Numbered from the stretch's first letter, positions 8,687-34,685 are shown. The stretch is DNA of 64,000 bases from Elusimicrobiota bacterium (GCA_023249675.1 JAHFCE010000006.1:72325-136324), one strand, 5' to 3'. Made by a program: numbers and translations. The notes: a model not told the origin generated them from the sequence alone.

Positions 8687-8693
8687 TAGCGCG

Positions 8694-10980: not shown

Positions 10981-11001
10981 GGCTTTGCTATACTCCTCCG
11001 G

Positions 11002-11688: not shown

Positions 11689-11700
11689 GCGCCGACGACC

Positions 11701-13311: not shown

Positions 13312-13312
13312 A

Positions 13313-13356
13313 CCCGCCCACGATCCTTGCGGAGAGTCGGGCGGCTATTTTTCGGG
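13313..13356. terminator. possible bidirectional rho-independent terminator between convergent prfC (+) and DUF192 (-) genes
   Basis: CCGCCC (13314-13319) pairs with GGGCGG (13339-13344), flanked by CTATTTTTCG on the plus strand. The GC stem is only 6 bp with a long loop, so this is weak. Confidence 0.25.
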
Positions 13357-13827
13357 GATCACGACCTCGAACTTCAAGACATCTCCGGCCTTCAGCTTGC
13401 GGCGCTTCGCCTCGCCCGCGGCGAGTTCGAGCACGTATTGCCCCCGGCCGCCCGCCGTCGCGACCTGATCGTCCGGAGTCGCCACGGTCGAGGACTTCAG
13501 GCGCTCGTGGATCACCGTGATCCTCTTATCGGCCCCGATCCAAAGGATATCAAGGGACACAAGCGTGTTCTTCATCCAGAAGTTCAGGAACATATCCTGC
13601 GGGAACACGAAGAGCATCCCGTAGTCATGCTTCATTTTCGTCACGCACATGAGCCCGACCTCGCGCGACATCGGCGTGTCGACGAGATCGATTTTGATCG
13701 TCTTGCCGTTGGGCATGGTCAAGGTCGTCTTCTTGGCGGCGGAAACGGCCTGAGGCGTACACTTCGCGGCGGCGCCGCGGGCAAGCGCCGGAAACGCGAG
13801 GGCGGCAGCCAGCAGAAACATTTTCAT
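13345..13827 (-). CDS. DUF192 (COG1430) domain secreted protein
   Basis: Signal peptide MKMFLLAAALAFPALARG, then the DUF192-typical core FVFPQDMFLNFWMKNTLVSLDILWI. The start ATG overlaps the stop of the upstream gene (ATGA). Confidence 0.75.
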   Translation of the reverse strand: MKMFLLAAALAFPALARGAAAKCTPQAVSAAKKTTLTMPNGKTIKIDLVDTPMSREVGLMCVTKMKHDYGMLFVFPQDMFLNFWMKNTLVSLDILWIGADKRITVIHERLKSSTVATPDDQVATAGGRGQYVLELAAGEAKRRKLKAGDVLKFEVVIPEK

Positions 13828-15431
13828 TGTATCTTCTCCGGATCCGGCTGTGATTTGACGAAACGCGAAATCTCGCGAGCCTCGTCGGCCCAACTGCGCG
13901 TGCCCCAAGGTCCGTGACGGCCCCACAGCAGCCGGGCCATGTCGTGAAAGAAGACCCCGCGCGCCGGACCGTCACCGTAGACGCCCGAGATCGCAGCCTT
14001 CAGGCGCCGGCCGAACTCGCCCGGACCGGCCTCGTCCTTCTGATGCAAAACCCAATCGAAGATATCTCCGGGCAGAACCTGGGCGTCGCCGTGTTTGATG
14101 TACTCGTGCCAGCTCTTCATCATCTCCGAATACTGGGGCTTGTCCGCCTCGTAGAACATGAGCGCGTCGATGTCCACGCCCGCGTCATTCATCATGACCG
14201 GATCCTGGCCATGGTGCCAGCCCTTGTCCCAGGTGAGAGTGAACGCCCACAGCGGCTTGCCGCCCAGGCGCGCCTTGATCTCCTTGACGATCAGCGCGGC
14301 GCGGCGCGCGCGCCACCACTCCCAGGCCTCGACGAACTCCCTATCGCGGCGCATGATCTTCTTGCGCGCGAGCCAGGTCATGCGCTCGTCGCGCGAGAGT
14401 TTGGGCCACTCGGGCGGAACGACGACCCCCGGCATCTCGGCGACGAAGTCGTCCACGAGCTCATAGCCGCCGAGCGCGTTGCGGATATAGTCGAGGCCGA
14501 CCCAGTCCACGTTCGGGTCGTCGGCGAAAGGCTTCAAAAAGGCGGCGACGTCGGCCAGCCGCTTCTTGTCGCGCAGGGAAACCGCGCGGGTGGCGACGGG
14601 CCGACCGTCTTTGATCTCAAGGCCGTACTCGTAACCCGGCAAAGCCTGGTTTGACATCGTCAAAGAAAACATCGCGTATACGCCGAACTGGAGGCCGCGC
14701 CTGCGGCACTCCTCGGCCACCTTGGGGATCAGCTTGAGGTTGGCGTCCATCCAGATCTCGCCCTTGCCGAGACCCGGCGTCTGCCCGCCGAGCATGAAGA
14801 ACGCATCGGCGCCGATGGACTTCGCCCAGTCGAGCAGACCGCGCCAATCCGTCGTCTTTCCATCCGGCCCTTTGACCCGCATCGCGGAGAGCGGCATCAC
14901 GCTCTCGAGCGTGGCGACGACGAAGCCCTGAGGCATCGGCTTGGGTTTGCGCCGCGCGATCTGAAACGCGGCCGTCTCCAGACGCTCATCGAGATCGGGC
15001 CTCCCCAGCAGGACGGGGCGGTAAGCGCCCGGCGGCGCGTTCCACGGCACCGGCCAGCGCGCCGTCCAAAAACCGGGAGCGACGCGGCGCGCAGTCATTT
15101 CCCGAATCCCCGCGATCGTCGTCACGATCTCGGTGCCGCGCATGACGACGAAGCGCGGCGGCACGGCTCGGAAAGACTCGTCCAAAGTGGGATCATGGGA
15201 AACGAGGGACAGCTCGACGATGTCGTAATGCAGGTGCTCGGACTTTGACGCGGACAGCCGCAGGACGCGGCTCTTCGCTCGGATACCCCACAATCCGAAA
15301 ACCACCGCGTACAACGCCGCGACGGATGCGAATAGGTAAATCCCGCGGCGAATGTGATCGCTCAGGCGCATGAGAGGGGGGATTCTACCGTTTTTTGATA
15401 TACTGCGACTCTCGAAAAGGCCACTCGACAA
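13824..15431 (-). CDS. hypothetical N-terminally membrane-anchored protein (Trp-rich, possibly glycoside-hydrolase-like)
   Basis: Long 535-aa ORF with one TM segment (IYLFASVAALYAVVFGLWGI). Globular Trp/Asp-rich sequence with no compositional junk. No family recognised with certainty. Confidence 0.6.
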   Translation of the reverse strand: MSSGLFESRSISKNGRIPPLMRLSDHIRRGIYLFASVAALYAVVFGLWGIRAKSRVLRLSASKSEHLHYDIVELSLVSHDPTLDESFRAVPPRFVVMRGTEIVTTIAGIREMTARRVAPGFWTARWPVPWNAPPGAYRPVLLGRPDLDERLETAAFQIARRKPKPMPQGFVVATLESVMPLSAMRVKGPDGKTTDWRGLLDWAKSIGADAFFMLGGQTPGLGKGEIWMDANLKLIPKVAEECRRRGLQFGVYAMFSLTMSNQALPGYEYGLEIKDGRPVATRAVSLRDKKRLADVAAFLKPFADDPNVDWVGLDYIRNALGGYELVDDFVAEMPGVVVPPEWPKLSRDERMTWLARKKIMRRDREFVEAWEWWRARRAALIVKEIKARLGGKPLWAFTLTWDKGWHHGQDPVMMNDAGVDIDALMFYEADKPQYSEMMKSWHEYIKHGDAQVLPGDIFDWVLHQKDEAGPGEFGRRLKAAISGVYGDGPARGVFFHDMARLLWGRHGPWGTRSWADEAREISRFVKSQPDPEKIQ

Positions 15432-15443
15432 GGAGGACGCGAC

Positions 15444-15677
15444 ATGGTGACCGGACTGGTGCTGGTGCGGCTGATGGCGGGCAAGGAGAAGGTCGCTTTG
15501 TCTCGCATCAAAGAGATCAAGGGCGTTTCACACGTCACCGCCGTGTTCGGCCGCTGGGACCTCGTGCTCGACATCGAAACCGAGGACGTCGGCACGCTGT
15601 CCAACGTCGTGGTGCGCGACATTCGCGCCACCCCCGGCGTGCTCTCCACCGAAAGCCTCGTCACGACCTCCATCTGA
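15444..15677 (+). CDS. Lrp/AsnC ligand-binding (RAM) domain stand-alone protein
   Basis: 77-aa protein matching the C-terminal effector domain pattern of AsnC-family regulators (VTAVFGRWDLVLDIETED...). It is immediately upstream of the peptide transport operon. Confidence 0.65.
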   Translation: MVTGLVLVRLMAGKEKVALSRIKEIKGVSHVTAVFGRWDLVLDIETEDVGTLSNVVVRDIRATPGVLSTESLVTTSI

Positions 15678-15688
15678 GTGATCATCCG

Positions 15689-16708
15689 GTGAGCGAGCCC
15701 GTCCTCTCCGTTCGCGGCCTGCGGACTCACTTCATCACGCGCGAGCGCACCGTTGTGGCGGTCGACGGGGTCAGCTACGACCTCCACCCCGGCAAGACGC
15801 TCGCCGTCGTCGGCGAGTCGGGCTCGGGGAAAAGCGTTCATGCGCTCTCGATCCTTCGACTGCTTCCTGAACCGCCGGCCAAAGTTGTGGGCGGAGAAAT
15901 ACTCTTCCAAGGCCGCGATCTGCTGAAGATGGGCGCTGAAGAGATGCGCAAGATCCGCGGCAACCGCATCGCGATGATCTTCCAGGAACCGATGACGAGC
16001 CTCAATCCCGTCTTGAAGGTCGGGGAGCAAATCGCCGAGGCCGTCGTCTTGCATCAGGGCCTCTCCCAGGAAAAAGCCTGGGCCAAGGCCGTAGGCCTCC
16101 TCAAGAAGGTCGGCATTCCGCATCCGGAAGAACGCGTGAATGACTACCCCCATCAATACTCCGGCGGCATGCGCCAGCGCGCGATGATCGCGATCGCGCT
16201 GTCCTGCGAGCCCGACGTCCTGATCGCCGATGAGCCAACAACGGCCCTCGACGTCACGATCCAGGCCCAGATCCTCGAGCTGATGAAGGACCTCCAGCGC
16301 GAGTACCGCATGGCGATCGTGCTCATCACGCACAACATCGGCGTCGTCGCCGAAATGGCCGACGATGTCGTCGTCATGTACGCCGGCCGCCCCGTGGAGA
16401 GCGCGCCCATCGGCGAACTGTTTAAAAACCCGAAGCATCCCTACACGAAGGGCCTGCTTGCCTCCGTGCCCTCCATCTATGAGCGCAAGGAACGCCTGGA
16501 GGCCATCTCCGGCCAGCCGCCCGACTTGAGCGGCGGCTTCACCGGCTGTCCGTTCGCGCCGAGATGCCCCCAGGCGATGAGTCGCTGCGGAACCGACGAT
16601 CCGCCCCAATTCCACCTTGCGGGCGAGCGCATGTCCAACTGCTGGCTGGTCGAAGACGAGACCAAGTCCAGTTCGCACCGCCACGCACCGTCCGGGGCGA
16701 TCCAGTGA
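15689..16708 (+). CDS. oppD: oligopeptide/dipeptide ABC transporter ATP-binding protein (OppD/DppD type)
   Basis: Walker [12 protein letters not shown] signature YSGGMRQR, Walker [11 protein letters not shown] and the C-terminal oligopeptide-ABC TOBE-like extension with Cys residues. Start chosen at GTG 15689; the longer ORF from 15395 overlaps the AsnC-like gene in another frame. Confidence 0.88.
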
Positions 16709-17721
16709 GCGTCACGCCGATCCTCGCGGTCAAGGACCTCAAGAAGCATTTCGACGCCCGCAAGGGCCTCTTCGGCGAAAAAACCACGGTCAAGGCCGTG
16801 GACGGCGTTTCCTTCAACGTGATGCCGCAGGAAAGCTTCGCCGTCGTCGGCGAGTCCGGCTGCGGCAAGACCACGCTCGGCAAGCTTGTCTTGGCGCTCG
16901 AGAAATCAAGCGAGGGCACGGTACACTTTGACGGCCAGGACATCTCCAAAATGAACGGCGCAGCGCTCAAAAAAATGCGCCGCGAGATGCAGGTGATCTT
17001 CCAGGACCCTTACTCAAGCTTAAATCCGCGCATGACGGTGTCGGACATCATCACGGAACCGTGGGTGATCCATGACATGTACCGAAACCATGCCGAGCGC
17101 GCCCAAAAACTCGCCAAGCTTCTCGACGATTGCGGCATTGCCAAGAGCTATCTGCCTCGGCATCCCCATGAATTCTCGGGCGGCCAACGGCAGCGCGTCG
17201 GCATCGCGCGAGCGTTGGCGCTCGACCCTAAACTCGTCGTGGCCGATGAACCCGTGTCCGCGCTCGACGTCTCGATCCAAGCGCAGATACTGAATCTGCT
17301 AAAAGATTTACAGAAAGAAAGAAAGTTGGCGTATCTCTTTATCTCTCACGATTTTTCCGTGGTCCGTCATTTATGCACCCGGATCGCCGTTATGTATTTG
17401 GGCCGTATTGTGGAAACGGCTGATTCCGAGACCTTGTTCAATGATCCCCAGCATCCATACACCGAGGCTTTATTGTCGGCGGTTCCGGTCCCCGACCCCT
17501 CCATCGAAAAGCGCCGCAAGCGCATCCTCTTGACCGGAGACGTGCCTTCGCCGCTGAAACCGCCGCCCGGCTGCCGCTTCCATCCGCGCTGCCGCTATAT
17601 GCGCGACGCCTGCAGGACTCACGACCAGGCCCTCATCGAAGCCAAATCCGGCCACGAAGCGGCCTGTGAAGTGCTCCCTTTTAAAGACGCACGCAGCGCT
17701 GCCGCACTCGTCGCCCTCTAG
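16705..17721 (+). CDS. oppF: oligopeptide/dipeptide ABC transporter ATP-binding protein (OppF/DppF type)
   Basis: Walker A GESGCGKTT, signature FSGGQRQRV and Walker B VADEPVSALD. GTG start overlapping the oppD stop (GTGA). Confidence 0.88.
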   Translation: MSVTPILAVKDLKKHFDARKGLFGEKTTVKAVDGVSFNVMPQESFAVVGESGCGKTTLGKLVLALEKSSEGTVHFDGQDISKMNGAALKKMRREMQVIFQDPYSSLNPRMTVSDIITEPWVIHDMYRNHAERAQKLAKLLDDCGIAKSYLPRHPHEFSGGQRQRVGIARALALDPKLVVADEPVSALDVSIQAQILNLLKDLQKERKLAYLFISHDFSVVRHLCTRIAVMYLGRIVETADSETLFNDPQHPYTEALLSAVPVPDPSIEKRRKRILLTGDVPSPLKPPPGCRFHPRCRYMRDACRTHDQALIEAKSGHEAACEVLPFKDARSAAALVAL

Positions 17722-17734
17722 GAGGGGGAATCCC

Positions 17735-19933
17735 ATGAGCCACGCCGCGAAAATCGAAGGCGCCGCAGCGCCCCTGACGACCTACGTCCCCGACAACACC
17801 AAGATCCCCGAGTTTACGATCCAGGCCGTCATCCTGGGCTTCGTGCTCTCCATCGTCTTCAACGCGGCCAACGCCTACCTGGGCCTCAAGATCGGCTTGA
17901 CGATCTCGGCCTCGATCCCATCCGCGATCATCTCGATGGGCGTGCTGCGCATGGTCCTGCCTCGCCTCATCGGCCGCACCGGCACGGTCCTGGAAAACAT
18001 GGTCGTCCACTCGATCGCCTCGAACGGTGAGTCATTGGCGGCCGCGGTGATCTTCACGGTGCCCGCGTTGTTTTTCATGGGCCGCGAGGTCACGAACACG
18101 GAAGTCTTCCTGCTCGGAACGGCGGGCGGCGTGCTCGGCATGCTCATGATGATCCCCCTGCGCCACGCGCTCGTCGTCACCGAGCACGACAACCTGCCCT
18201 TTCCGGAAGGCACCGCCTGCGCCAAGGTCCTGATCGCGGGCGACAAGGGAGGTGCGAGCGCTGCACCCGTTTTCCTCGGCATTCTCTCCGGCGGCCTGTA
18301 CAAGTTCGCAATGTCGGGCCTGAATCTTTTCAAAGACGTCCTGTTCTGGTCCTCGCCCAAGTATCATCAAGCCGGTTTCGGCTACGAAGTCTCGCCTTTG
18401 CTCGTCGGCGTGGGCTACCTCGTCGGCCTGCGCATCGCGGCCGTCATGCTCGCCGGCGGCCTGCTCGGCTTCTGGGTCCTTATTCCGCTGATCCACGCCC
18501 TCGGCGGACACAATATCGTAGCGCCCGGAACCGTGCCGATCGATGAGATGAGCACGATGGCGCTGCGCGCCAACTACGTCAAGTACATCGGCGCCGGCGG
18601 CGTGGCCTTCGGCGGCCTCGTCAGCCTCCTTAAATCCCTGCCCGACATCGCGGGCTCGCTCAAGTCGAGCCTCGCGATGCTCGCAAAAGCCGCGGAGTCC
18701 AAACGCCTGGGCGGCCATGGGGAGAAGGACCGCGAGCATAAGGCCGTCGTATTCGGAGGCGCGGCGCTCGGCTTCCTCGTGGGCGCATTTGTCGGCGAGG
18801 CCGAGTTCTCCGTGACGCGCTTCGTCCTTCAGCTCGTGGTCGGCGGCGGCCTCGGCGCGCTTGCGGGCGGAACGCTGTTCCACTTCCTGTCGCACGCAGC
18901 GGCGAAGTACTCGAAAGCCTTCAAGCGTTCCGAACACGACCTGCCGCTGCCAGCGGTGGGCCTTGGCATCCTGTCCATGTTCCTGATGGTTTGGCTGACA
19001 CCGTCGTTCGGCCTCTCGTTCTGGGAGTCCGTCGCGGTCGTGGGATTCTGCTTTTTCTTCGTCGCAGTCTCAGCCCGCATGGTCGGCCTGATCGGCACGA
19101 CGAACCAGCCGGTCTCGGGCATGACGATCACGGCCCTCCTGGCTCTGACCATGCTCTTTCAGTTCCTCGGCCACAGCCCGGAGGGCATTAAGACCGCCGC
19201 GATCATGGGCGGGGCCATCGTCTGCATCGCCATCTCCCTGTCGGGAGATTTATCTCAAGACATGAAGACCGCCGTCCTCATCGGCGCGACGCCGTGGAAG
19301 ATCCAGTTGACCCACATCATGGGCACGCTCGTCTCCGCGGTGCGCTCGGGCTTCATTCTGCTGATCCTTTATAAGGCCTACGGCTTCGGGGCGCCGACGG
19401 CGGCGCATCCCCACGCGCTTGAGGCGCCGCAGGCCCAGCTGATGGCCAAACTCGTCGAGGGCGCGACCGGCGGCCAGCTGCCCTGGACGCTCCTGCTCAC
19501 TGGAGCGGGCATCGGCCTTGTGATGGAGCTATGCGGGCTCTCCGCGCTCGCCTTCGCGATCGGCCTGTACCTGCCGATCACGAACTGGCCGATGATCTTC
19601 CTGGGCGGCCTGCTCGCATGGTTCATCGCCAAGCGGCGCGGCGGCCAAAGCGAGGACGACCCCGGCTCGCTGTTCAGCTCGGGCCTCATCGCCGGCGAGG
19701 CGCTGATGGGCATCGGGCTTGCGGTGATCACCGTGATCATGAACACCTACGGCGGGCCTGAGAATCCGGCGGGAACTCTGCACTCGGTCGCCGACATGCT
19801 CGGCGGGCTGTCTCTACGCGTTCTGCCCGATGACAGCACGCTCAATGAGTCCGTGCTCGCGACCGCACTCTGCATGGGTGTCGTCTACATCTTGTGGCGC
19901 CAGGCGACCGCAAAGAAAAAGGCTCATGCGTAA
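17735..19933 (+). CDS. OPT-family oligopeptide transporter (proton-coupled, about 16 TM)
   Basis: 733 aa. N-terminal OPT-family block EFTIQAVILGFVLSIVFNAANAYLGLKIGLTISASIPSAIIS, with many TM helices throughout. Strong RBS GGAGGGGG 6 nt upstream of the ATG. Confidence 0.85.
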   Translation: MSHAAKIEGAAAPLTTYVPDNTKIPEFTIQAVILGFVLSIVFNAANAYLGLKIGLTISASIPSAIISMGVLRMVLPRLIGRTGTVLENMVVHSIASNGESLAAAVIFTVPALFFMGREVTNTEVFLLGTAGGVLGMLMMIPLRHALVVTEHDNLPFPEGTACAKVLIAGDKGGASAAPVFLGILSGGLYKFAMSGLNLFKDVLFWSSPKYHQAGFGYEVSPLLVGVGYLVGLRIAAVMLAGGLLGFWVLIPLIHALGGHNIVAPGTVPIDEMSTMALRANYVKYIGAGGVAFGGLVSLLKSLPDIAGSLKSSLAMLAKAAESKRLGGHGEKDREHKAVVFGGAALGFLVGAFVGEAEFSVTRFVLQLVVGGGLGALAGGTLFHFLSHAAAKYSKAFKRSEHDLPLPAVGLGILSMFLMVWLTPSFGLSFWESVAVVGFCFFFVAVSARMVGLIGTTNQPVSGMTITALLALTMLFQFLGHSPEGIKTAAIMGGAIVCIAISLSGDLSQDMKTAVLIGATPWKIQLTHIMGTLVSAVRSGFILLILYKAYGFGAPTAAHPHALEAPQAQLMAKLVEGATGGQLPWTLLLTGAGIGLVMELCGLSALAFAIGLYLPITNWPMIFLGGLLAWFIAKRRGGQSEDDPGSLFSSGLIAGEALMGIGLAVITVIMNTYGGPENPAGTLHSVADMLGGLSLRVLPDDSTLNESVLATALCMGVVYILWRQATAKKKAHA

Positions 19934-21653
19934 GCTCTTCGCCGCCACGGCGGCCGCGGCGGTCCTGGCGGCCCCCATCCGCGCGTCAAGCGACCCCGCG
20001 ACCCTCGACTACGCCCTCGCCGCCGATGTGGACACTCTCGATCCGCACTGGGGCTACGACGCTGTCTCGCTGTTCATCGTCGACCAGGTCTATGAGACCT
20101 TGATCGGCTTCAAGGGGGAATCCCTCGACGACTACGAGCCCCGCCTGGCGACCGTCGTCCCCTCGCTCGAAAACGGCTTCCTGTCGAAGGACGGTCTCAC
20201 CTACGCCTTCCCGCTGCGCCTGGGCGCGAAGTTCCACGATGGGTCGGCCCTATCGGCCGAAGACGTGAAGTACTCTCTCATGCGCTTCCTGCTGCTCGAC
20301 CGGGACGGCGGGCCGTCGAATCTTCTCCTCTACGGGCTGCTCGGCGTGCGCAAGACCGACGCTCTGCCTCCCGATCAGATTTTCGATCGAGCCGACAAAG
20401 CCGTCTCCATTGAAGGCGGCGCCTTGGTCCTGCGCCTGAAGAAACCCTTCGCGCCGCTCCTGGGCATCCTCGCCAACTTCGCCCATGTCGTGTCCAAGGG
20501 CTACGTGGAGGCCAACGGCGGCTGGGACGGACGCAAGGACAGCTGGGTCAAGCACCGCAACCCATCGAAAGAAGCCTCGTCTTTGTATGCTCGCGCCAAC
20601 GGCACCGGCCCGTTCCAGCTCGAGTCCTGGGACCGGGACAGGAAGAAAATAATTCTTGTCCGCAATGACTCGTACTGGCGCAAGCCGGCGGCGCTCTCCC
20701 GCGTCAACCTGACGATCATCGCGGACTCGCGCGAGCGGCGCCGCCGTCTCGCGGCGGGGGAGCTCGATGCCGCGTTCGTCGAGCGGCGCTACTTGGATCA
20801 GTTCGAGGGCCTGCCCGGCGTGGTCGCAACCGACGGCCTGCCCGCGCTCGAAGCGCAGAACACGTTCCTGTTCAACTTCAACATTGCGGCAAAGGACAAC
20901 GCCTGGCTCGGCACCGGCAAGCTCGGTGACGGCGTGCCCCCGGACTTCTTCGCCGACGAAGACGTGCGCAAGGCCTTCGCGTTCGCCTTCGACTACGACG
21001 CTTTCATAAAAGAAGGCTACCGCAGCAAGGCCGTCCAGGCGCATGGGCCGATCCCGGCGGCACTGTTCGGCTACAACCCGAAGCAGAAACCGTGGCCCTT
21101 CTCACCCTACCAAGCGGAAGCCGCGTTCAAGCGCGCCAAAAACGGCGACGTGTGGAGGCAGGGCTTCGCCCTGTCGATGCCGTATACCGAGGGCAACGCC
21201 GAGCGCCGCGTCGCCTGCCGCCTGATGAAGGAGGGCGTCGAAAAGCTCAATGCGAAGTTCCACGTCGACTGCCGGGCGCTTGCCGAGTCGCGCCTCCTCG
21301 ATGAGTTCCGCGCCCGGCGCCTGCCCGCGTTCGTCTACCGCTGGATTCTCGACTATCCGGATCCGCACAACGCCGTCGAGCCGTTTCTGCATTCTCACGG
21401 CTACTTCGCGTCCATGCTCGGCTACAGCAACCCGAGAGCCGACGCGATGATCGAGCAGGCTGCGGCCGAGGTCGATCCGGCCAAGAGGAAGGCGCTCTAC
21501 TACGAGCTGCAGGCACTCGCGATCTATGACGCGCCCGCGGTCTTCACGGCGGACAGCTGCAACATCGTCGTGCGCCGCGCGAAAGTACAAGGCTGGCTGT
21601 ATCACCCGATTAAACCCTACGGAAACCTGTACGAGGTCACTAAAATCCCATGA
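19926..21653 (+). CDS. ABC transporter substrate-binding protein, family 5 (peptide/nickel), paralog 1
   Basis: Signal peptide, then SBP_bac_5 features (DP..W...D....V.E.L, a GLTY..P.R.G.KFHDG block). About 35-40% identical by eye to the next two genes. Confidence 0.85.
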   Translation: MRKLFAATAAAAVLAAPIRASSDPATLDYALAADVDTLDPHWGYDAVSLFIVDQVYETLIGFKGESLDDYEPRLATVVPSLENGFLSKDGLTYAFPLRLGAKFHDGSALSAEDVKYSLMRFLLLDRDGGPSNLLLYGLLGVRKTDALPPDQIFDRADKAVSIEGGALVLRLKKPFAPLLGILANFAHVVSKGYVEANGGWDGRKDSWVKHRNPSKEASSLYARANGTGPFQLESWDRDRKKIILVRNDSYWRKPAALSRVNLTIIADSRERRRRLAAGELDAAFVERRYLDQFEGLPGVVATDGLPALEAQNTFLFNFNIAAKDNAWLGTGKLGDGVPPDFFADEDVRKAFAFAFDYDAFIKEGYRSKAVQAHGPIPAALFGYNPKQKPWPFSPYQAEAAFKRAKNGDVWRQGFALSMPYTEGNAERRVACRLMKEGVEKLNAKFHVDCRALAESRLLDEFRARRLPAFVYRWILDYPDPHNAVEPFLHSHGYFASMLGYSNPRADAMIEQAAAEVDPAKRKALYYELQALAIYDAPAVFTADSCNIVVRRAKVQGWLYHPIKPYGNLYEVTKIP

Positions 21654-23416
21654 GAACTCTCCGCGCCGCCCTATCCTGCGTTCTGGCTCTCACGCCCGCG
21701 GCGTTCGCCGCGGAAACGATCAAGAATCCCGACACGTTCGTGTACGCCACGATCGGCGATCCCGACAGCCTCGACCCCATCTGGTCGTACGACACGGCAA
21801 GCCACAACATCATCGCCAACATCTATGAGTTCCTGCTCGCGTACAAAGGCAGCGGCTTATCGGTGAAGGACCTGGTGCCGATGATCGCCGGGAAAGTGCC
21901 GTCGAAGGCGAACGGCCTCGTGTCCGCGGACGGCCTGACCTACCGCTTTCCGATCCGCAAGGGCGTTAAATTTCATGATGGAACGATCCTGACGCCCGAG
22001 GACGCGCGCTACTCCATTCTGCGCTTCCTGCTGGTGGATCGCGACGGCGGGCCCGCCTCGCTGCTGCTCGAGCCGATTTTGGGCGTCAACAGCACGCGCA
22101 AGAACGGCAAGTTCGACCCGGAAATCGGAGGTCGCGCGTTTGCGGCCGTGACGGTCGACAAGGGTGACCTCGTGATCAAGCTCGCCCGGCCCTTCGCGCC
22201 GTTCCTGACGATCCTGGCGAACTTCGGCGCGATGACATCGAAGGACTTCTGCGTGAAGAACGGTCAGTGGGACGGGCAGGCCGCGACGCTCGAGGCCTTC
22301 AACAACCCCCGGCGCGAAGCGATGATCCCCAATGAGAAGGCCGACGGCACCGGCGCCTTCAAACTTGAGCGCTTGGACAAGGCGAACAAGCAGGTGATCC
22401 TCCTGCGCCACGAGGGCTACTGGCGCGCACCCGCGAAGCTGCGCCAAGTCGTCATCAAGGTCGTCGACGACTTCAACACGCGCAAGCTCATGCTCCAGGC
22501 CGGCGACGCCGACGCGGTGTACGGGCCACAAATGTACTTCCCGCAGCTGCAGGGCGTGCCGGGCGCGGAAGTCATCGATGGCCTGCAGAACCTCGAGCGC
22601 TCGTCGATTCTGATGTTCACGTTCAAGATGAACCCGACCGCGAACCAGAATATCGGCTCCGGAAAACTCGACGGGCAGGGCGTGCCTCCCGACTTCTTTT
22701 CCGACAAGGACGTACGCAAGGCGTTCGCGTACAGCGTGGACTACGACTCGTACATCAGGGACATCCTCAGGGGGAAGGGTCGCCGGACGTCCGGCGTGAT
22801 CCCCGCGTCCCTGCCCGGCGGCTCGGAGCCGCGGCCCCAGTTCAAACTCGATCCAAAGAAGGCGGAGGAGCACTTCCGCAAGGCCTGGGGAGGCCAAGTC
22901 TGGGAAAAGGGGTTCAAGGTTTCCTTCGTGTTCAACGCGGGCTCGGCCCCATCGCAGACGATCGCGCAGATGATCAAGAAAAATATCGAAGCGCTGAACC
23001 CGAAGTTTCGTGTGGACCTGCGCATGATCCAGTGGTCCACATACCTTGAGCAGACGCAGGCCAACAAGATTCCAGTGTTCCTCGCCGCGTGGCAGGCAGA
23101 CTATCCCGATGCCCACAATTTCGCGTTTCCGATCGTCCATTCCGAAGGCTACTACGCGGGCAAGCAAGGCTACAAGAACCCGAAGGTGGATGCGCTGATC
23201 GACGAAGCTTCACGGACGCAGGATGAACGCACCCGCTCATCCCTCTACAAACGAATGCAATCTCTCGTTGATGAGGACGTGCCGCATGTGATGCTCGCCG
23301 AAGGCGTGCGCTACCGCGCGCAGAGGACCTGGGTGAAGGGCTTCGTCTTCCGGCCGACGTTTCCGGACATGCCCTACGGCGGGTACTATTACGACCTATA
23401 TAAGGCCGTAAAATGA
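21650..23416 (+). CDS. ABC transporter substrate-binding protein, family 5, paralog 2
   Basis: Signal peptide MRTLRAALSCVLALTPAAFA, with the same conserved blocks as paralogs 1 and 3 (KGVKFHDGT, RFLLVDRDGGPASLLLEP). Confidence 0.88.
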   Translation: MRTLRAALSCVLALTPAAFAAETIKNPDTFVYATIGDPDSLDPIWSYDTASHNIIANIYEFLLAYKGSGLSVKDLVPMIAGKVPSKANGLVSADGLTYRFPIRKGVKFHDGTILTPEDARYSILRFLLVDRDGGPASLLLEPILGVNSTRKNGKFDPEIGGRAFAAVTVDKGDLVIKLARPFAPFLTILANFGAMTSKDFCVKNGQWDGQAATLEAFNNPRREAMIPNEKADGTGAFKLERLDKANKQVILLRHEGYWRAPAKLRQVVIKVVDDFNTRKLMLQAGDADAVYGPQMYFPQLQGVPGAEVIDGLQNLERSSILMFTFKMNPTANQNIGSGKLDGQGVPPDFFSDKDVRKAFAYSVDYDSYIRDILRGKGRRTSGVIPASLPGGSEPRPQFKLDPKKAEEHFRKAWGGQVWEKGFKVSFVFNAGSAPSQTIAQMIKKNIEALNPKFRVDLRMIQWSTYLEQTQANKIPVFLAAWQADYPDAHNFAFPIVHSEGYYAGKQGYKNPKVDALIDEASRTQDERTRSSLYKRMQSLVDEDVPHVMLAEGVRYRAQRTWVKGFVFRPTFPDMPYGGYYYDLYKAVK

Positions 23417-25194
23417 GTGCTAGAATACGGCCCATGCTCAGACCGATCCTCGTCGTCGCGCTTGCCCTCGGGGCCCTTTCCTCAACGGCGCTCGCCGCTC
23501 TCCCGGTCAAGAACCCGGACGCCTACACCTACCTCACGATCTCCGACGCCGACAGCCTCGATCCGGCCTATTCGTACGACACGGCCTCGCACATGGTGAT
23601 CTTAAACGTGTACGAACCCCTGTTCCAGTTCGATCGGGGCTCGACCGAGAAACTGATCCCGCTGATCGCCGAGAAGGTGCCAAGCCGCGAGAACGGCCTG
23701 ATCTCCGCGGACGGCCGGACGTACACGATTCCGGTCCGCAAGGGCGTCAAGTTCCACGACGGCACGCCGATGACGGTTGAGGACGTGAAGTGGTCTTTGC
23801 TGCGCTTCCTGCTTCTGGACCGCGCCGCGGGCCCCTCCTCGCTGCTGCTCGAGCCGCTGCTCGGCTACGCCTCCACGCGCGGCGAGGACGGCAAGATCCT
23901 GCCCAACGTCTGGCAGGATGCGAATAAGGCGGTCAGCACGCAGGGCGACAAGCTCATTGTCCGCTTGCCGCGGCCCTATGCCCCTATACTGACTATCCTC
24001 GCATCTTGGTCACCTGTGCTCTCTAAATCCTGGGCTGTTAAAAACGGGGATTGGGACGGCACCGAGGCGACGTGGCAGAAGTACAACAATCCGAGCAAGG
24101 AGACCTCGCCCTTCTTCGAGCGCGCCAACGGCACGGGCCCATTCAAGCTCGAGCGCTGGGACCGCAAGACGAAGGAATTCATCCTGACGCGCAACGACCA
24201 ATATTGGCGCGCGCCGGCGAAGATCAAGAACGTGGTCATCAAGGGCGTCAACGAGTTCGGCACGCGCAAGCTGATGCTCCAAGCCGGCGACGCGGACGCG
24301 ATCTACGCCGACCGCCCGCTGCTCACCCAACTCCAGGGCATCCCCGGCGTGGCGATCATCGACGACCTGCCGACGCTTGAGATGAACCCGGTCGTGTTCT
24401 TCACATACCGGATCAACGCGATCGGCAACTCCTTCCTGGGAAGCGGCCAGCTCGACGGCAACGGCATCCCGGCGGACTTCTTCTCCGACAAGGACGTGCG
24501 CAAGGCTTTCGCCTACTCGTTCGACTACAAGGGCTTCATCAACGACGTGATGCGCGGCAAAGGCACGCAGGCGACGGGCGCGATCCCGAAAAGCCTGCCC
24601 GGCCACAACCCGAACGGACGCAAGTACGCTCTCGACAAGAAGAAGGCCGAGGAGCACTTCCGCAAAGCCTGGGGCGGCAAGCTCTGGGAGCAGGGTTTTA
24701 AGTTCACGATGACCTTCAACTCCGGCAACCTGCCGCGCCAGACTGTGTGCCAAATTCTGAAGCGCAACATCGAGGGCTTAAACCCGAAGTTCAAGATCGA
24801 CGTGCGCGCGGTGGAATGGCCGACCTTCCTCGATGCCTACAAGTCGTCGAAGCTCCCGATCTTCGTGATGGGCTGGAACGCGGACTACCCCGACCCGCAC
24901 AACTTCGCGTTTCCGCTCCTGCACTCGAAGGGAGACTACCCCACGACGCAGAAATTCAAGAACCCGGAGTTCGACCGCCTTGTTGAGGAGGGCAACGCGC
25001 AGACCAACCTCGCCAAGCGCAAGACGATTTACGCGAAGCTCCAAGACCTCGCGTTCGAGGAGGCGCCGCAGCTGTACATCGTCGACGCGGTGCGCTACCG
25101 CACGCAGCGGGATTGGGTGAAGGGCTGGTTCCACAATCCGATCTTCCCCGATTCACCGTACGGCAGCTACTTCTACACGATCTCCAAGGAATAG
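23413..25194 (+). CDS. ABC transporter substrate-binding protein, family 5, paralog 3
   Basis: Signal peptide, with KGVKFHDGTPMT and RFLLLDRAAGPSSLLLEP blocks. Closest to paralog 2. Confidence 0.88.
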   Translation: MSARIRPMLRPILVVALALGALSSTALAALPVKNPDAYTYLTISDADSLDPAYSYDTASHMVILNVYEPLFQFDRGSTEKLIPLIAEKVPSRENGLISADGRTYTIPVRKGVKFHDGTPMTVEDVKWSLLRFLLLDRAAGPSSLLLEPLLGYASTRGEDGKILPNVWQDANKAVSTQGDKLIVRLPRPYAPILTILASWSPVLSKSWAVKNGDWDGTEATWQKYNNPSKETSPFFERANGTGPFKLERWDRKTKEFILTRNDQYWRAPAKIKNVVIKGVNEFGTRKLMLQAGDADAIYADRPLLTQLQGIPGVAIIDDLPTLEMNPVVFFTYRINAIGNSFLGSGQLDGNGIPADFFSDKDVRKAFAYSFDYKGFINDVMRGKGTQATGAIPKSLPGHNPNGRKYALDKKKAEEHFRKAWGGKLWEQGFKFTMTFNSGNLPRQTVCQILKRNIEGLNPKFKIDVRAVEWPTFLDAYKSSKLPIFVMGWNADYPDPHNFAFPLLHSKGDYPTTQKFKNPEFDRLVEEGNAQTNLAKRKTIYAKLQDLAFEEAPQLYIVDAVRYRTQRDWVKGWFHNPIFPDSPYGSYFYTISKE

Positions 25195-25195
25195 C

Positions 25196-26224
25196 ATGCT
25201 GAAGTTCTGCCTGAAGCGCCTCGCCTTCCTGCCGCTCGTGATGTTCGGCGTGACCTTCCTGCTGTTCTTCTGCCTGCAGTTCCTGTCGCCCGAGATGCGC
25301 GCGTCGCTCTACATCAAGGATCCGCGCCAGCTCTCCCAGCTCGAGGCGGTGATCGAGAAGTACGGCCTGCGCAAACCCATGCCCGTGCAATACGCGATCT
25401 GGCTCAAGCAGGTCGTGCGCGGCGACCTCGGCTACTCCGAGACGGCAAAGATGCCGGTGGCTGAGGCGATCCGGGCGTTCTTCCCGGCGACATTCGAGCT
25501 GACCTTGCTCACGTTCTTTCCGATCCTGATCGTCGGCGTCTTCTTCGGCGTGCTGTCGGCCGTTTACAAGGACCGCCTGGTCGATCACATCACGCGCTTC
25601 GTCGCGATCACCGGCTACTCCCTGCCGAGTTTCGTCCTGGGCCTCGTGCTCCTGATGGTGTTCTATGGGCGCCTGCACTGGTTTCCGCCCGGACGCTACA
25701 CGCTCGAGACGGACATGCTCGTGCACCTGGACTCCTTCCGACACTACACGGGCCTGCTCACGCTCGACTGCCTGCTCAACCGCGAGGGCGGGGCATTCGT
25801 CGACGTGGTCAAGCACATGATCCTGCCCGCCTGCACCTTGCTCTACATCTCGGTCGCACTCCTGCTGCGCATCACGCGTTCCTCCATGCTCGAGGAGCTG
25901 TCGAAGGACTATGTCCGTACCGCGCGCGCCAAAGGCCTGCCGGAGCGCGTCGTCATCCGCAAACACGCGCTCGCCAACGCGCTGATTCCGGTCGTCACGC
26001 TCTCAAGCCTCCTGTTCATCGGCCTGCTCGGCGGCGTGGTCATCACCGAGACTGTCTTCGACTTTCCGGGGATCGGCCGCTGGGGCGTGCAGGCCGCGCA
26101 GCAGCTCGATGTGCCCGGCGTGCTGGGCTCAACGATGCTCGCCGCGTTCCTGTTCGTGATGGCCAACCTGATTTCGGACATGCTCTACGCCGTCGTCGAT
26201 CCCCGCATCCGGGTGGGCGGCTGA
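25196..26224 (+). CDS. ABC transporter permease (OppB/DppB type)
   Basis: Six-TM BPD_transp_1 permease with an EAA-like loop (MLEELSKDYVRTARAKGLPER...). Confidence 0.88.
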   Translation: MLKFCLKRLAFLPLVMFGVTFLLFFCLQFLSPEMRASLYIKDPRQLSQLEAVIEKYGLRKPMPVQYAIWLKQVVRGDLGYSETAKMPVAEAIRAFFPATFELTLLTFFPILIVGVFFGVLSAVYKDRLVDHITRFVAITGYSLPSFVLGLVLLMVFYGRLHWFPPGRYTLETDMLVHLDSFRHYTGLLTLDCLLNREGGAFVDVVKHMILPACTLLYISVALLLRITRSSMLEELSKDYVRTARAKGLPERVVIRKHALANALIPVVTLSSLLFIGLLGGVVITETVFDFPGIGRWGVQAAQQLDVPGVLGSTMLAAFLFVMANLISDMLYAVVDPRIRVGG

Positions 26225-26225
26225 G

Positions 26226-27107
26226 ATGCCGCGCCTGAAGCGCGCGTGGAAGACGGTCAAACGGCGTCCGATGTCCTTGCTCGGCGTAGCTCTCATCGGA
26301 TTCTTCCTCGCGGTTGCAGTCCTCGCCCCCGTCCTGGCCCCGCCCGAAGCCGGCACGCGCGACGCGTATATCATCCCGCAAACCGGCTACAGTCCGGACC
26401 CGGTGCGCCCATCGAAGGAGCACCGGTTCGGCACCACCGAGCAGCAGTACGACCTCTACTACGGCATGGTCTGGGGCACGCGCACGGCCTTCAAGGTCGC
26501 TCTCAAAGTCGTCGGCTTCTCCGTGATCATCGGCGTGCTCCTGGGAGGCGCGGCCGGCTTCTACGGCGGCTGGGTGGACGAGTGCCTCATGCGCTTCACC
26601 GACGTCGTGCTCGCTTTCCCGGACCTCGTGTTGGCCGTCGTGATCGTCGCGATCATGGGGCCGAGCCTCGAGCACGTGATGTACTCCGTGATGGCCGTGT
26701 CCTGGCCGTCTTACGCCCGCCTCATGCGCGGCGACGTGATGTCCGTCAAGGAGAGGGACTTCGTCGCCGCCGCGCGCGCTCTCGGCGCTTCGGATGCGCG
26801 CATCCTGTTCCGGCACATCATCCCGAACTCGATCTATCCGGTGCTCGTCGTCGCGTCATTGTCCACGGGCTCGGTTGTGATCACAGCGGCCGCACTGTCC
26901 TTCCTCGGCCTCGGCGCGCCGGTCGGCTACGCGGACTGGGGCCAATTGATTTCTCTTTCTAGGAACTGGATCCTGGGGTCGTCGGGAAATCCTTTCGAAT
27001 ACTGGCACACCGTCTTCATCCCGGGCATCGCGATCTTCCTGTTCGTGCTCGGCTGGAACCTCCTCGGCGACGCCGTCCGCGACATCCTAGATCCGCGCCA
27101 GAAATAA
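26226..27107 (+). CDS. ABC transporter permease (OppC/DppC type)
   Basis: OppC-like permease with the typical conserved loop VKERDFVAAARALGASDARILFRHIIPN. Confidence 0.88.
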   Translation: MPRLKRAWKTVKRRPMSLLGVALIGFFLAVAVLAPVLAPPEAGTRDAYIIPQTGYSPDPVRPSKEHRFGTTEQQYDLYYGMVWGTRTAFKVALKVVGFSVIIGVLLGGAAGFYGGWVDECLMRFTDVVLAFPDLVLAVVIVAIMGPSLEHVMYSVMAVSWPSYARLMRGDVMSVKERDFVAAARALGASDARILFRHIIPNSIYPVLVVASLSTGSVVITAAALSFLGLGAPVGYADWGQLISLSRNWILGSSGNPFEYWHTVFIPGIAIFLFVLGWNLLGDAVRDILDPRQK

Positions 27108-27113
27108 CGCGCC

Positions 27114-28697
27114 ATGCCCACACTCAACGCCCTCCTTGACCGTTCCGCGCAGGAAGGCGGGGGGAAGACCGCCTTGGTGTTTGGCGAGCGCACAGTCTCT
27201 TTTTTCGAACTGCGCCGGGAAGTTCTCGAGGTCGCCGCGGGCCTGCGCCGCGCGGGCGTGGCCAAAGGCGACCGGGTCGCGATCGTCCATCGCAACGCTC
27301 CCGAGTTCGTGGTCGCTTATTTCGCCGCCAGCCGCCTGGGCGCGATCGCCGTGCCGATCAATTTCATGGTGTCAAAGGCCGACGAGCTCGCCTACATGCT
27401 CGGCGACTGCGGCGCGAAGGGTGTGATCACGCAAAGCGACTTCCTGCCCGGCCTGACGGCGGCTGCGGCCAAATGCCCCGCGCTCACGGTCCTCTGGGTC
27501 ACCGACTTGGCGGGGCCTTCCCTCTCCCCTTTGATCCAACCGTTCTCGGAACTGCGCGCGGCCTCCTTGCCCGACGCGGCCGCCGACGCCGCGCTCGACA
27601 GCGACGTCGCCGCGATCCTCTACACCTCGGGCACGACGGGTTTCCCGAAAGGGGTCATGCTCACGCACCGCAACCTCGTGACGAATTGCGAGGCCTGCCT
27701 GCGCCGCATGACTTTGGACCGCGGCGACGTCGCACTCTGCATCCTGCCCATGTTCCACAGCTTCGCCTGGACGGCGATCGTGCTCGCCTCGCTGCGCCTC
27801 ACACTCACCTGCGTCGTCTTCGCGGCGATCGCGCCCGCCAAGCCGTGGCTCAAGGCCATGGGCAGGCACGGCGTGAGCCTGTTCGCGGCAGTGCCGCAGG
27901 TGTATGCAGCGCTCGCGCGCGAGGCGAAAAACTGGAAACCGTGGCTTTTCCTGCGCTTCTGGGCGTTCCGCCGGGTCAAGAACGCGATCTCGGGCGCAGC
28001 ACCCCTAGCGCCGGTGGTCGCCGAGGGCTTCCGCGCGGCCGTCGGCGTCTCGATCGTCGAGGGCTGGGGCCTCACCGAGACGAGCCCCGCGGTCACGGTT
28101 AACCCGCCTGGCGCGGTGCGTTTCGGCTCCGTCGGGACCGCGATCTCGGGCGTGGAGGTGCGCATCGTCGACGATCTTGAAAAGACGGCGCCGCTCGGCG
28201 CCGAGGGCGAGGTCGTCGTCAGGGGCGACTGCGTCATGAAAGGTTATTGGAACCGGCCCGAGGACACGCGTGCGACTTTCACCGCCGACGGCTGGCTCAA
28301 GACCGGCGACATCGGCGTCTTGGACGCCGACGGCTACCTCTGCATCCGCGACCGCAAGAAGGACATGATCATCGTCAAGGGCCTCAAGGTATTCTCCGCG
28401 CAGGTCGAGGCCGTCATCGCCGAAAACCCCGCCGTCGAGGAAAACGCCGTCATCGGCGTGCCCGACGAAGTCGGCGACGAGGTCATCAAGGCCTTCGTCG
28501 TGCTCAAGAAAGGCTGCGTTCTCGAAAAGTCAGCTTTGATCCAGTACTTCAAAGAACGCCTCGACGCGTACAAGCGCCCGCGCGATGTCGAGATCGTGGA
28601 CTCCTTGCCCAAGAACGCGCTGCAGAAAGTCCTCAAGCGCGAGCTGCGCGAACGCGAGCTCAAGAAGCGAGCGGCGGCGCCCGCCGCCAAGGCCTGA
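27114..28697 (+). CDS. long-chain fatty acid-CoA ligase (AMP-dependent synthetase/ligase)
   Basis: AMP-binding motif ILYTSGTTGFPKGV and the downstream conserved motifs GWLKTGDIG and IKRPRD are present. Confidence 0.9.
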   Translation: MPTLNALLDRSAQEGGGKTALVFGERTVSFFELRREVLEVAAGLRRAGVAKGDRVAIVHRNAPEFVVAYFAASRLGAIAVPINFMVSKADELAYMLGDCGAKGVITQSDFLPGLTAAAAKCPALTVLWVTDLAGPSLSPLIQPFSELRAASLPDAAADAALDSDVAAILYTSGTTGFPKGVMLTHRNLVTNCEACLRRMTLDRGDVALCILPMFHSFAWTAIVLASLRLTLTCVVFAAIAPAKPWLKAMGRHGVSLFAAVPQVYAALAREAKNWKPWLFLRFWAFRRVKNAISGAAPLAPVVAEGFRAAVGVSIVEGWGLTETSPAVTVNPPGAVRFGSVGTAISGVEVRIVDDLEKTAPLGAEGEVVVRGDCVMKGYWNRPEDTRATFTADGWLKTGDIGVLDADGYLCIRDRKKDMIIVKGLKVFSAQVEAVIAENPAVEENAVIGVPDEVGDEVIKAFVVLKKGCVLEKSALIQYFKERLDAYKRPRDVEIVDSLPKNALQKVLKRELRERELKKRAAAPAAKA

Positions 28698-30208
28698 TGG
28701 CCCGCCGGCAAGTCCGCCTAAGCCCCGAAGCACGAGAAACTCTCTCGAAGGTCTTCGCCGCCGCGCACCAGCCGGTGTGGCTCGTCGGCGGCTCGATTCG
28801 CGATGCGGCCCGAGGACGCCCTTTCCACGACCTCGACCTGGCGTGCGCCGACGCGCACGCGCTGGCGATCCGGCTCGCGCGCGCGTTCAAGGGCACGCTC
28901 GTCACGCTCGATGAGGCAAACGCCGTGTACCGCCTCGCGCTCGCGCCCGCGCGCGGCGGCGTCCTCAGGCAGATCGACGTCGCCGGCCTCCAGGGCAAAA
29001 CAATAGTCTCGGACCTCGCGCGCCGCGATTTCACGATGAACGCCGTAGCCCTCGCGTTGGCCGACGAACTTCCGGCGTCCCTCCCGGAGTCGGCGTTTCT
29101 CGATCCGCGGGGGGGATTGAAGGATCTCGCCTCAGGGGTCATCCGCGCGGATGTCGAGGAGAACTTGAGCGACGATCCGCTGCGCCTGCTGCGCGCGTTC
29201 CGTCTCGCGGCCCAGCTCGGCCTTGTCATCGAGCCGAAGACATTGAAGGCGATCGGCCGCCTGCGCCGTCTGATCTCACGACCCGCCCCCGAACGCGTCG
29301 CCGCCGAACTGCTCCTGCTCCTCGCCGTGCCCGGCGCCTCGTCCTGGCTTAAGCAGATGGACGAATGCGGCCTGCTGACGGGCGTATTCCCCGAACTCGA
29401 GCCGTCGCGCCGCTGCGCCGAAGGCTATTACGGGCCCGGCGGCGTGCTCACGCATACGCTCGAGGTCTGCGCGCGCGTGGACTTCCTGCTCGCGAACCTG
29501 CGCACGATCTACCCCAAACTCGCCCCCGACCTCGAGGCGCACGCCTGCGCGCGAGGCGGGCCGCCATTTCACGCCTTGCTGCTCCTGTCCGCGTTGCTGC
29601 ACGACGTCGCCAAGCCCGCAACGGCCAAAGAAATCGGCGGCCGCCTGCGCTTCTTCGAGCACGACACGAAGGGCGCGACACTCACAGAAAAGATCTTGCG
29701 CAGGCTTCGTCTCTCGCGCGAGCAGATCGACAGCGCCGCCGCGATCGTGCGGTATCACCTGCGCCCGGGTCATCTCGCATCCGGCGGCCCGCTGACCGAG
29801 CGTGCAATTTATCGCTTCTTCCGCGACCTCGGTCCGGACGCGCCGGGCCTGCTGATCGTTTGCTGGGGTGATCACGCCAGCTACATGCCCCAAACGCGCC
29901 TCAAACGCTTGCTCGAAACGGCCTGCGGCGAAGCGCCGCGCGCCGATCTGTCCCGCATCCGGCCCCTGGAGGCGCGCAAGACGGTCTCTCATCTCCAACT
30001 CGTCTCACTTCTCCTACGCCGCTGCTTCAGCCGCGACCGCGCCCCCATCCCTGTACGTCTGCTGGACGGGAATGAGATCATGAAAGCCCTAAAAATCCCG
30101 CCCAGTCCGCGCATCGGAGAGATCCTGGAATGTCTGCGCGAGGCCCAGGCCGCGGGGGAAGTTCTCGACCGGAAACAAGCGCTGGCCTTCATCTCGCGCC
30201 TGAAATAG
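28697..30208 (+). CDS. CCA tRNA nucleotidyltransferase / poly(A) polymerase family protein with a C-terminal HD domain
   Basis: PolyA_pol head domain motifs LVGGSIRD and DLDLA, with a later HD motif LLHDVAKP. The true start is the ATG at 28697 (TGATG overlap with the ligase stop), not the longer 28247 ORF, whose upstream part is Arg-rich junk. Confidence 0.82.
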   Translation: MARRQVRLSPEARETLSKVFAAAHQPVWLVGGSIRDAARGRPFHDLDLACADAHALAIRLARAFKGTLVTLDEANAVYRLALAPARGGVLRQIDVAGLQGKTIVSDLARRDFTMNAVALALADELPASLPESAFLDPRGGLKDLASGVIRADVEENLSDDPLRLLRAFRLAAQLGLVIEPKTLKAIGRLRRLISRPAPERVAAELLLLLAVPGASSWLKQMDECGLLTGVFPELEPSRRCAEGYYGPGGVLTHTLEVCARVDFLLANLRTIYPKLAPDLEAHACARGGPPFHALLLLSALLHDVAKPATAKEIGGRLRFFEHDTKGATLTEKILRRLRLSREQIDSAAAIVRYHLRPGHLASGGPLTERAIYRFFRDLGPDAPGLLIVCWGDHASYMPQTRLKRLLETACGEAPRADLSRIRPLEARKTVSHLQLVSLLLRRCFSRDRAPIPVRLLDGNEIMKALKIPPSPRIGEILECLREAQAAGEVLDRKQALAFISRLK

Positions 30209-34611: not shown

Positions 34612-34650
34612 TCGCGCGGCGAGCGTGTCTTGCGCGCTGTTACCTAACGC

Positions 34651-34659: not shown

Positions 34660-34671
34660 ATAGCGAATTCG

Positions 34672-34682: not shown

Positions 34683-34685
34683 AAC

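Follow-up and report, generated by a model that had tools for sequence, protein, structure and literature searches.

In a stretch of 64,000 nt from an Elusimicrobiota bacterium (GCA_023249675.1, JAHFCE010000006.1:72325-136324; called the window in the following), which is densely coding with about 65% G+C, we found the gene of an oligopeptide transporter (OPT) nested within the genes of an oligopeptide permease (Opp)-type ATP-binding cassette (ABC) importer. Nine genes on the plus strand (15444-27107) follow each other in the order RAM, oppD, oppF, OPT, SBP1, SBP2, SBP3, oppB and oppC, where RAM stands for a small Lrp/AsnC-type ligand-binding protein and SBP for a substrate-binding protein. 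This placement and order had been proposed by a model from the DNA alone (the sequence-only reading), and coordinates and profile matches agreed with it for every gene. We consider it probable, at about 0.6, that the cluster serves peptide scavenging in a high-GC Elusimicrobiota bacterium and that two separate inner-membrane importers are expressed together. This reading starts from the identity, order and spacing of the genes, from their conservation and modular gain and loss in relatives, and from a turnover of OPT paralogs at a fixed position.

The simplest and most likely interpretation is a co-regulation of two ordinary transporters which would provide parallel routes of peptide uptake. 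Transcription would start upstream of the RAM gene and run through the nine genes, probably on into the following genes for an acyl-CoA ligase (acs) and a CCA-adding enzyme. The OppB and OppC permeases would form a binding-protein-dependent ABC importer with the OppD and OppF ATPases, and each of the three SBPs, being old paralogs, would supply this one translocator with its own range of peptides. The OPT carrier would take up oligopeptides using the membrane potential or the proton gradient. The RAM protein may sense amino acids and feed back on expression, for example by joining a full-length Lrp-type regulator.

Components of the cluster and their predicted transcription

The transporter encoded in the middle of the cluster is a member of the OPT family (TC 2.A.67), since its sequence matched the profile PF03169 over positions 1-622 of 623 (E = 6e-96; 322.9 bits vs a curated cut-off of 25.8). 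The bacterial OPT model TIGR00733 was matched with 345.6 bits at a cut-off of 182.5. A crude Kyte-Doolittle scan revealed about 16 hydrophobic segments, and the family is described by 16 (or 17) transmembrane segments. Orthologs across Elusimicrobiota were 57-92% identical, and the closest homologs came almost all from metagenome-assembled Elusimicrobiota. To our knowledge, prokaryotic OPT transporters are widespread but almost none has been characterised, and predictions of what they carry come mostly from gene context.

The genes on both sides of OPT encode an Opp/Dpp-type ABC importer (TC 3.A.1.5) with two oligo_HPY ATPases, OppB and OppC permeases and secreted family-5 SBPs. The oligo_HPY domains of the oppD and oppF products were recognised with E = 1e-22 and 8e-20, respectively. 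All OppD/DppD-type NCBIfam matches of the oppD product stayed below the equivalog cut-offs, and the oppF product, which is 41% identical to OppD, reached 408.8 bits for the dipeptide ABC ATPase subfamily NF008453 (cut-off 408). In the oligo_HPY region at the C-termini of both ATPases (16540-16660 and 17560-17680) four cysteines form the pattern C-x5-C-x6-C ... C; in some Opp/Dpp ATPases an iron-sulfur cluster is bound by similar motifs.

All three SBPs begin with signal-peptide-like sequences that lack a lipobox cysteine. Their mutual identity is 41-52%, with 41-43% between SBP1 and either of the others and 52% between SBP2 and SBP3. For SBP3 more than 120 homolog clusters with 60-91% identity were listed, and among the named matches listed all were from Elusimicrobia but one, which is labelled Acidobacteria. 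Moreover, all three proteins keep an aspartate aligned with Asp408 of Escherichia coli DppA, which we take to be the residue anchoring the alpha-amino group of the peptide, and have no counterpart of what we assume to be Arg355. The reference in this alignment was an assumed sequence of DppA; with 507 aa it is as long as chain 1dpp_A, and its D408 and R355 are presumably numbered as in the literature. The sequence-only reading had regarded the three SBPs for one translocator and the position of the ATPase genes before the permease genes as oddities. We do not share this view, as several binding proteins for one translocator are commonplace in the Opp-type ABC family and an ATPase-first gene order is ordinary variation there.

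The first gene of the cluster encodes a stand-alone RAM-domain protein, i.e. a ligand domain without a helix-turn-helix. PF01037 covered residues 7-75 (E = 1.7e-10), no helix-turn-helix domain was found in the protein, and in the LysM model with its 136 positions it aligned with 61-131 and hence with the C-terminal half only. Its best matches among solved structures were the stand-alone RAM proteins 2zbc, 2e1a, 2cvi and 2djw from archaea and Thermus. In relatives the protein was 64-100% identical, and wherever the contig of an Opp-linked locus extends far enough, its gene immediately precedes oppD. Within the cluster it is conserved best, with 95-100% identity where OppD shows 81-88%. Stand-alone RAM proteins bind amino acids, and one of them assembles into mixed oligomers together with a full-length Lrp-type regulator; their physiological role is unclear (PMC2995911). 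The protein of the window is probably an amino-acid sensor as well, and a role in amino-acid feedback would be a reasonable guess.

From RAM to oppC the gaps at the junctions are, in order, 11, -4, 13, -8, -4, -4, 1 and 1 nt. The overlaps of stop and start codons which had been described as present almost throughout are thus real, but only four of the eight junctions show them and the wording was slightly generous. An AGGAGG motif is located 8 nt 5' of the OPT start codon. In consensus scans terminator-like matches were as frequent as in shuffled sequences (16 vs 14.0 +/- 3.9), as were promoter-like ones (1 vs 2.2), and neither type occurred inside any of the cluster junctions. Therefore, no sequence signal at the junctions points to an internal promoter or terminator that would isolate the OPT gene, which had been named as an observation that would speak against a common unit. 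Folding of the RNA at five junctions gave nothing notable (z from -0.24 to +2.2), and Rfam at the gathering threshold detected one tRNA only in the window and no regulatory RNA upstream of the cluster. In front of the RAM gene we noted an extended -10-like motif, TGATATACT, and AAGGAGGA 6 nt 5' of the start codon; the consensus promoter scan called no promoter in this intergenic region. The nine genes share one strand, are separated by short or negative gaps and contain no terminator signal between them, from which we predict that they most likely constitute one transcription unit.

Conservation and modular history of the locus

For comparison we used 160 OPT loci from species-representative genomes and metagenomes and ten further contexts obtained by exact protein look-up, and the proteins of the window were mapped onto the fetched loci by tblastn. 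The nested order RAM-oppD-oppF-OPT-SBP(n)-oppB-oppC was present in about 20 Elusimicrobiota loci with OPT identities from about 60% to 92%. The full or nearly full order including acs and the gene of the CCA-adding enzyme was found in L001-L004, L081, L082, L161, L163, L165, L166, L169 and L170, and a part of it in L011, L083, L101 and L102, whose contigs are truncated on one side. A recurrence in about 20 independent loci is more than expected by chance. The closest relative of the window was L001 (CALRXP010000126.1) with 92% identity in OPT, 100% in RAM and 82-100% among the cluster proteins. Its record is titled 'Candidatus Endomicrobium trichonymphae', a label that may be wrong given its likeness to the high-GC window.

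The overlaps at the two borders of OPT were kept as well. A 4-nt overlap joins oppF to OPT in L163, L165 and L166, and one of 8 nt joins OPT to SBP1 in the window and in L161, L163, L166 and L169. What differs between relatives is the number of SBP genes between OPT and oppB, which is three in the window, L083, L161, L164, L166 and L169, two in L003, L101, L163, L165 and L170, one in L004 and zero in L167, L017 and L134. In the record of L164 (1-16753) the genes for SBP2, acs and the CCA-adding enzyme appear in fragments, as if caused by assembly frameshift errors. The phylogeny of the SBPs, which had been proposed as a means to date the duplications, resolved three orthogroups according to the position of the genes, and the SBPs of the window had orthologs at corresponding positions in relatives. 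The SBP3 orthogroup was present wherever any SBP was present, whereas SBP1 and SBP2 were missing from some lineages. Hence the paralogs stem from old duplications, after which some of them were lost.

Outside this group the combination is rare, as judged from a sample across phyla. Among 70 other OPT loci with a flank of at least 3 kb on both sides, a single one (L049) had an Opp-type gene within 3 kb, and an M20 peptidase gene was found within this distance in 14. In L040 (Proteiniborus) an oppBCDF set is located 2.4 kb upstream of the OPT gene. This supports the claim that a secondary OPT carrier and a primary ABC system in one cluster are unusual, and the embedding is real. The sequence-only reading would have lost its point if the arrangement had been both common and already described in the lineage. 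It turned out to be common there, but full-text literature searches yielded no description of an OPT gene nested in an Opp cluster. The nested layout is apparently undescribed, and its architecture appears to be new, with all parts belonging to well-known families.

A sister clade (L086, L005, L006, L010, L084-L093 and L103) has no Opp genes at the locus but a gene for an M20 peptidase directly upstream of OPT, with a 4-nt overlap of both genes in L086. The peptidase is PepT-like (TIGR01883; 309.5 bits vs a cut-off of 274.25). Both partners occur together in L167, where the order RAM-oppD-oppF-M20-OPT-oppB-oppC-acs-CCA contains no SBP gene (6505-17217; the variant is also seen in L017 and L134). 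L167 and L086 group together in the OPT tree, at the base of the clade without Opp genes, which suggests that the nesting predates the split of the two clades. In the simplest history, as judged from these sequences, Opp genes would have flanked OPT before the split and would later have been lost in most of one clade, with the peptidase being absent from the other. We also considered the RAM protein as a general partner of OPT and rejected this idea, as RAM was found at Elusimicrobiota loci only and its gene is kilobases away and on the opposite strand in most of the sister clade.

Moreover, the OPT gene itself has been exchanged at this position. According to pairwise identity matrices OppD, OppF, OppB and OppC of L165 and L166 share 70-83% identity with their counterparts in L163 and the window, but the OPT proteins in the same slot are only 38-43% identical to that of the window, to which the OPT of the far more distant L167 shows 62% identity. 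These proteins, which we call type 2 (L165:6051-8258 and L166:4266-6476; 735-736 aa), are 74% identical to each other and are longer by an insertion of about 65 residues around position 510-575. They share about 52% identity with the product of the first gene in tandem OPT pairs, which occur in L168 and L008, and also with OPTs of other phyla. The tandem pairs (L168:8074-12181 and L008:485-4433) consist of a type 2 gene followed by a type 1 gene, with no Opp genes, and could represent the ancestral state behind the exchange. The lineages may have retained different members of an ancestral tandem pair, or one paralog may have replaced the other; in both scenarios an OPT gene would have been kept at the slot. 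We see the retention of OPT through paralog turnover as the best argument for a linkage by selection and not by inertia. An OPT-specific partnership of SBP1 was rejected: L004 has OPT without SBP1, L167 has no SBP at all and both OPT types share the SBP1 orthogroup. Taken together, the layout appears to be ancient and modular, and it is probably maintained by selection in one Elusimicrobiota group.

Substrates and alternative explanations

We favour peptides as substrates because of the linkage of OPT to M20 genes, a leucyl aminopeptidase gene two genes downstream of the cluster (30237-31691) and the lack of any metallophore-synthesis or metal-related gene among the 30 window proteins scanned. 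The proposed role in peptide uptake is thus backed indirectly by context, both by the PepT-like gene directly before OPT in the sister lineages and by the M20 genes near other OPT loci. This agrees with an earlier study in which many prokaryotic OPTs were predicted as peptide transporters from genome context and peptidase neighbours were reported (Gomolplitinant and Saier 2011, PMC3061005).

Several observations weigh against the preferred reading of the nine genes. The acs gene starts 6 nt after oppC, and the gene of the CCA-adding enzyme overlaps acs by 1 nt. Across the window co-directional gaps have a median of 7.5 nt, and 16 of 28 are not longer than 13 nt. As spacing is tight genome-wide, including the unrelated acs and CCA-adding enzyme genes, tight spacing alone does not prove that the nine genes work together, and the overlap of stop and start codons, which the sequence-only reading had used as operon evidence, is a weak indicator in such a compact genome. 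The flanking genes for a DUF192 protein, a 515-aa protein, acs and the CCA-adding enzyme are conserved over the same range as the cluster; since these flanks are equally syntenic, part of the conservation of the cluster is plain synteny. Furthermore, most of the sister clade lost Opp and kept OPT, and the complete genome CP096137.1 (L164, 3.8 Mb) has the half SBP1-SBP2-SBP3-oppB-oppC-acs-CCA at the locus, with RAM, oppD, oppF and OPT absent from the 6.5 kb upstream of it. The two systems are thus separable. In L170 gaps of 97 and 138 nt flank the OPT gene and leave room for promoters. Besides, the SBPs scored 70-104 bits against the models of Opp4A, NikA, DppA and GsiB, whose cut-offs are 393-1005.

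With the exception of these scores, the points would fit an explanation in which OPT and Opp act independently and their nesting is an accident that was frozen in a compact part of the chromosome with slow rearrangement, maybe with separate internal promoters. Nevertheless, we regard such an accident as unlikely. Inertia hardly explains why precisely this slot holds another OPT paralog in L165 and L166 or why the gene which replaces or joins Opp beside OPT is again peptide-related. Moreover, the overlaps at both OPT junctions have been kept in several lineages, and the scarcity of Opp-type genes near other OPT loci also argues against an accident.

A further explanation concerns the substrate. 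The OPT/YSL family and the family-5 binding proteins also include carriers of metal chelates and glutathione, and both transporters could serve a substrate other than nutritional peptides, such as a metal chelate of the nicotianamine or opine type, nickel, glutathione or cell-wall peptides. The sole solved structure matched by the OPT sequence is indeed the maize iron-phytosiderophore transporter 7wsr, although this match was weak (E = 6.5e-7). The SBPs matched the NikA and Opp4A models about equally, all far below the cut-off, and their nearest solved relatives are a mixture of peptide, glutathione/heme and dipeptide binders, including the glutathione/heme-binding HbpA (3m8u). In the published family tree prokaryotic OPTs belong to the 'iron-siderophore' half, but the same study predicts peptide transport for many of them (PMC3061005). 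The search for metallophore-synthesis and metal-related genes among the 30 window proteins scanned was negative, as stated above, so that a metallophore reading was rejected, and orthologous OPTs are linked to a PepT-like tripeptidase. The aspartate which we take to correspond to Asp408 of DppA, again in the alignment with the assumed sequence, is kept in all SBPs. On balance we give a substrate other than nutritional peptides only a small chance.

It is also conceivable that the two systems are integrated mechanistically. The OPT carrier might be fed by the SBPs of the cluster, in analogy to TRAP and TTT carriers, or the RAM protein might gate one or both transporters, in analogy to GlnK-AmtB. 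The OPT gene is always located between the ATPase genes and the SBP or permease genes, its 8-nt overlap with SBP1 is conserved, its slot survived the turnover of paralogs, and the RAM protein combines the lack of a DNA-binding domain with the highest conservation in the cluster. However, orthologous OPTs occur without a nearby SBP gene in the sister clade and L167, SBP1 occurs regardless of whether an OPT is present and of which type it is, and the remote, oppositely oriented RAM gene in most of the sister clade does not fit a gating function. We know of no OPT-family member that uses a binding protein, and we consider such an integration highly improbable. If the OPT accepted peptides from the cluster SBPs, it would be the first binding-protein-dependent OPT, and if the RAM protein acted as a gate, an amino-acid-sensing protein would switch off both importers directly.

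Two co-expressed but separate peptide importers thus remain our preferred explanation. The cluster adds evidence from gene context that one bacterial OPT lineage handles peptides, and this evidence has three strands, namely the ancient nesting in Opp, the alternative pairing with a PepT-like tripeptidase and the retention of OPT through a paralog swap. It also suggests a feeding mode for uncultured groundwater and soil Elusimicrobiota, in which an energy-cheap carrier and a high-affinity, ATP-driven importer with several receptors would be under common control. Natural variants with zero to three SBPs, with or without the peptidase and with type 1 or type 2 OPT are ready for comparison.

Neighbouring genes and comparison with known systems

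The positions of the cluster genes and of the adjoining features are given in Table 1.

Table 1. Coordinates of the nested OPT-Opp cluster and adjoining features in the window
Feature	Position	Strand	Remarks
Upstream intergenic region	15372..15443	+	Divergent; putative cluster promoter and ribosome-binding site, from reading of the sequence only
RAM (Lrp/AsnC ligand-binding) gene	15444..15677	+	77 aa; PF01037 only
oppD-type ABC ATPase	15689..16708	+	339 aa, GTG start; ABC_tran and oligo_HPY
oppF-type ABC ATPase	16705..17721	+	338 aa, GTG start; ABC_tran and oligo_HPY; 4-nt overlap with oppD
OPT transporter (type 1)	17735..19933	+	732 aa; PF03169, TIGR00733
SBP1, periplasmic family-5 binding protein	19926..21653	+	575 aa; PF00496 E = 1.2e-58; start overlaps OPT stop by 8 nt
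SBP2, family-5 binding protein	21650..23416	+	588 aa; PF00496 E = 3e-66
SBP3, family-5 binding protein, core paralog adjoining oppB	23413..25194	+	593 aa; PF00496 E = 1.2e-70
oppB-type permease	25196..26224	+	342 aa; BPD_transp_1 and BPD_transp_1_N
oppC-type permease	26226..27107	+	293 aa; BPD_transp_1 and OppC_N
Acyl-CoA (long-chain fatty acid) ligase, acs	27114..28697	+	AMP-binding domains; NF004837 488 bits vs cut-off 476

The acs and CCA-adding enzyme genes together span 27114-30208. The acs gene may be co-transcribed with the cluster but is probably no part of peptide uptake. We rejected acs as a component of the peptide system, since acs and the gene of the CCA-adding enzyme directly follow OPT in the Opp-less locus L086 and acs is located behind genes for an apolipoprotein N-acyltransferase (Lnt) and an MFS carrier in L089, which indicates lipid metabolism. 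Both genes are syntenic with OPT even in lineages lacking Opp. In L089 the genes between OPT and acs comprise those for a methyltransferase, Lnt and the MFS carrier, a gene order that hints at a role of acs in lipid or lysophospholipid recycling.

On the other side of the cluster a 515-aa protein without Pfam or NCBIfam match is encoded divergently on the minus strand (13824-15371). Its gene is paired with the DUF192 gene (13345-13926), and the pair is kept beside the RAM gene in both clades. Further downstream, a stretch of lower GC content (33312-36029; 0.57 vs about 0.65) contains an AbiEi/AbiEii toxin-antitoxin pair and an NTP_transf_8 nucleotidyltransferase gene. It is located directly upstream of tRNA-Gly(CCC) (35956-36029) and resembles a small mobile islet at a tRNA gene. 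An open reading frame of 1904 aa with high third-position GC is present at 44297-50011 on the plus strand.

Among known systems, the RAM protein resembles DM1 of Pyrococcus horikoshii and STS042 of Sulfolobus tokodaii, which also have about 75-90 aa and consist of the ligand-binding domain only. Unlike these, it is bacterial and encoded by the first gene of a transporter cluster. TRAP and TTT systems are secondary carriers with a periplasmic binding protein, and GlnK-AmtB and the C-terminal domain of MetN are examples of sensor-gated transport. The likeness to these is a functional analogy only, in that a carrier and an SBP, or a small ferredoxin-fold sensor and a transporter, are co-encoded. 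There is no sign of a physical link in the window cluster, and orthologous OPTs exist without nearby SBP genes.

With the Opp/Dpp importers (TC 3.A.1.5) the cluster shares two oligo_HPY ATPases, two permeases and family-5 SBPs with signal peptides, and also the tandem arrangement of paralogous SBPs. In Borrelia burgdorferi the tandem genes oppA1-A2-A3 similarly provide several binding proteins for one Opp translocator. However, the cluster differs from these importers by its leading ATPase genes, by the position of the SBP genes in its middle and by the OPT gene, in one lineage together with the peptidase gene, which splits the ABC genes into two blocks. In addition, no component of the cluster reaches the equivalog cut-off of an NCBIfam model. 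The OPT-peptidase pairs reported by Gomolplitinant and Saier (PMC3061005), in whose text 'ABC' appears once, in the introduction, and not in the context analysis, are similar in that the window encodes a bacterial TIGR00733 OPT whose orthologs in the sister lineage are joined to a PepT-like M20 gene. In the window, however, the partner of the OPT is not a peptidase but a complete ABC peptide importer.

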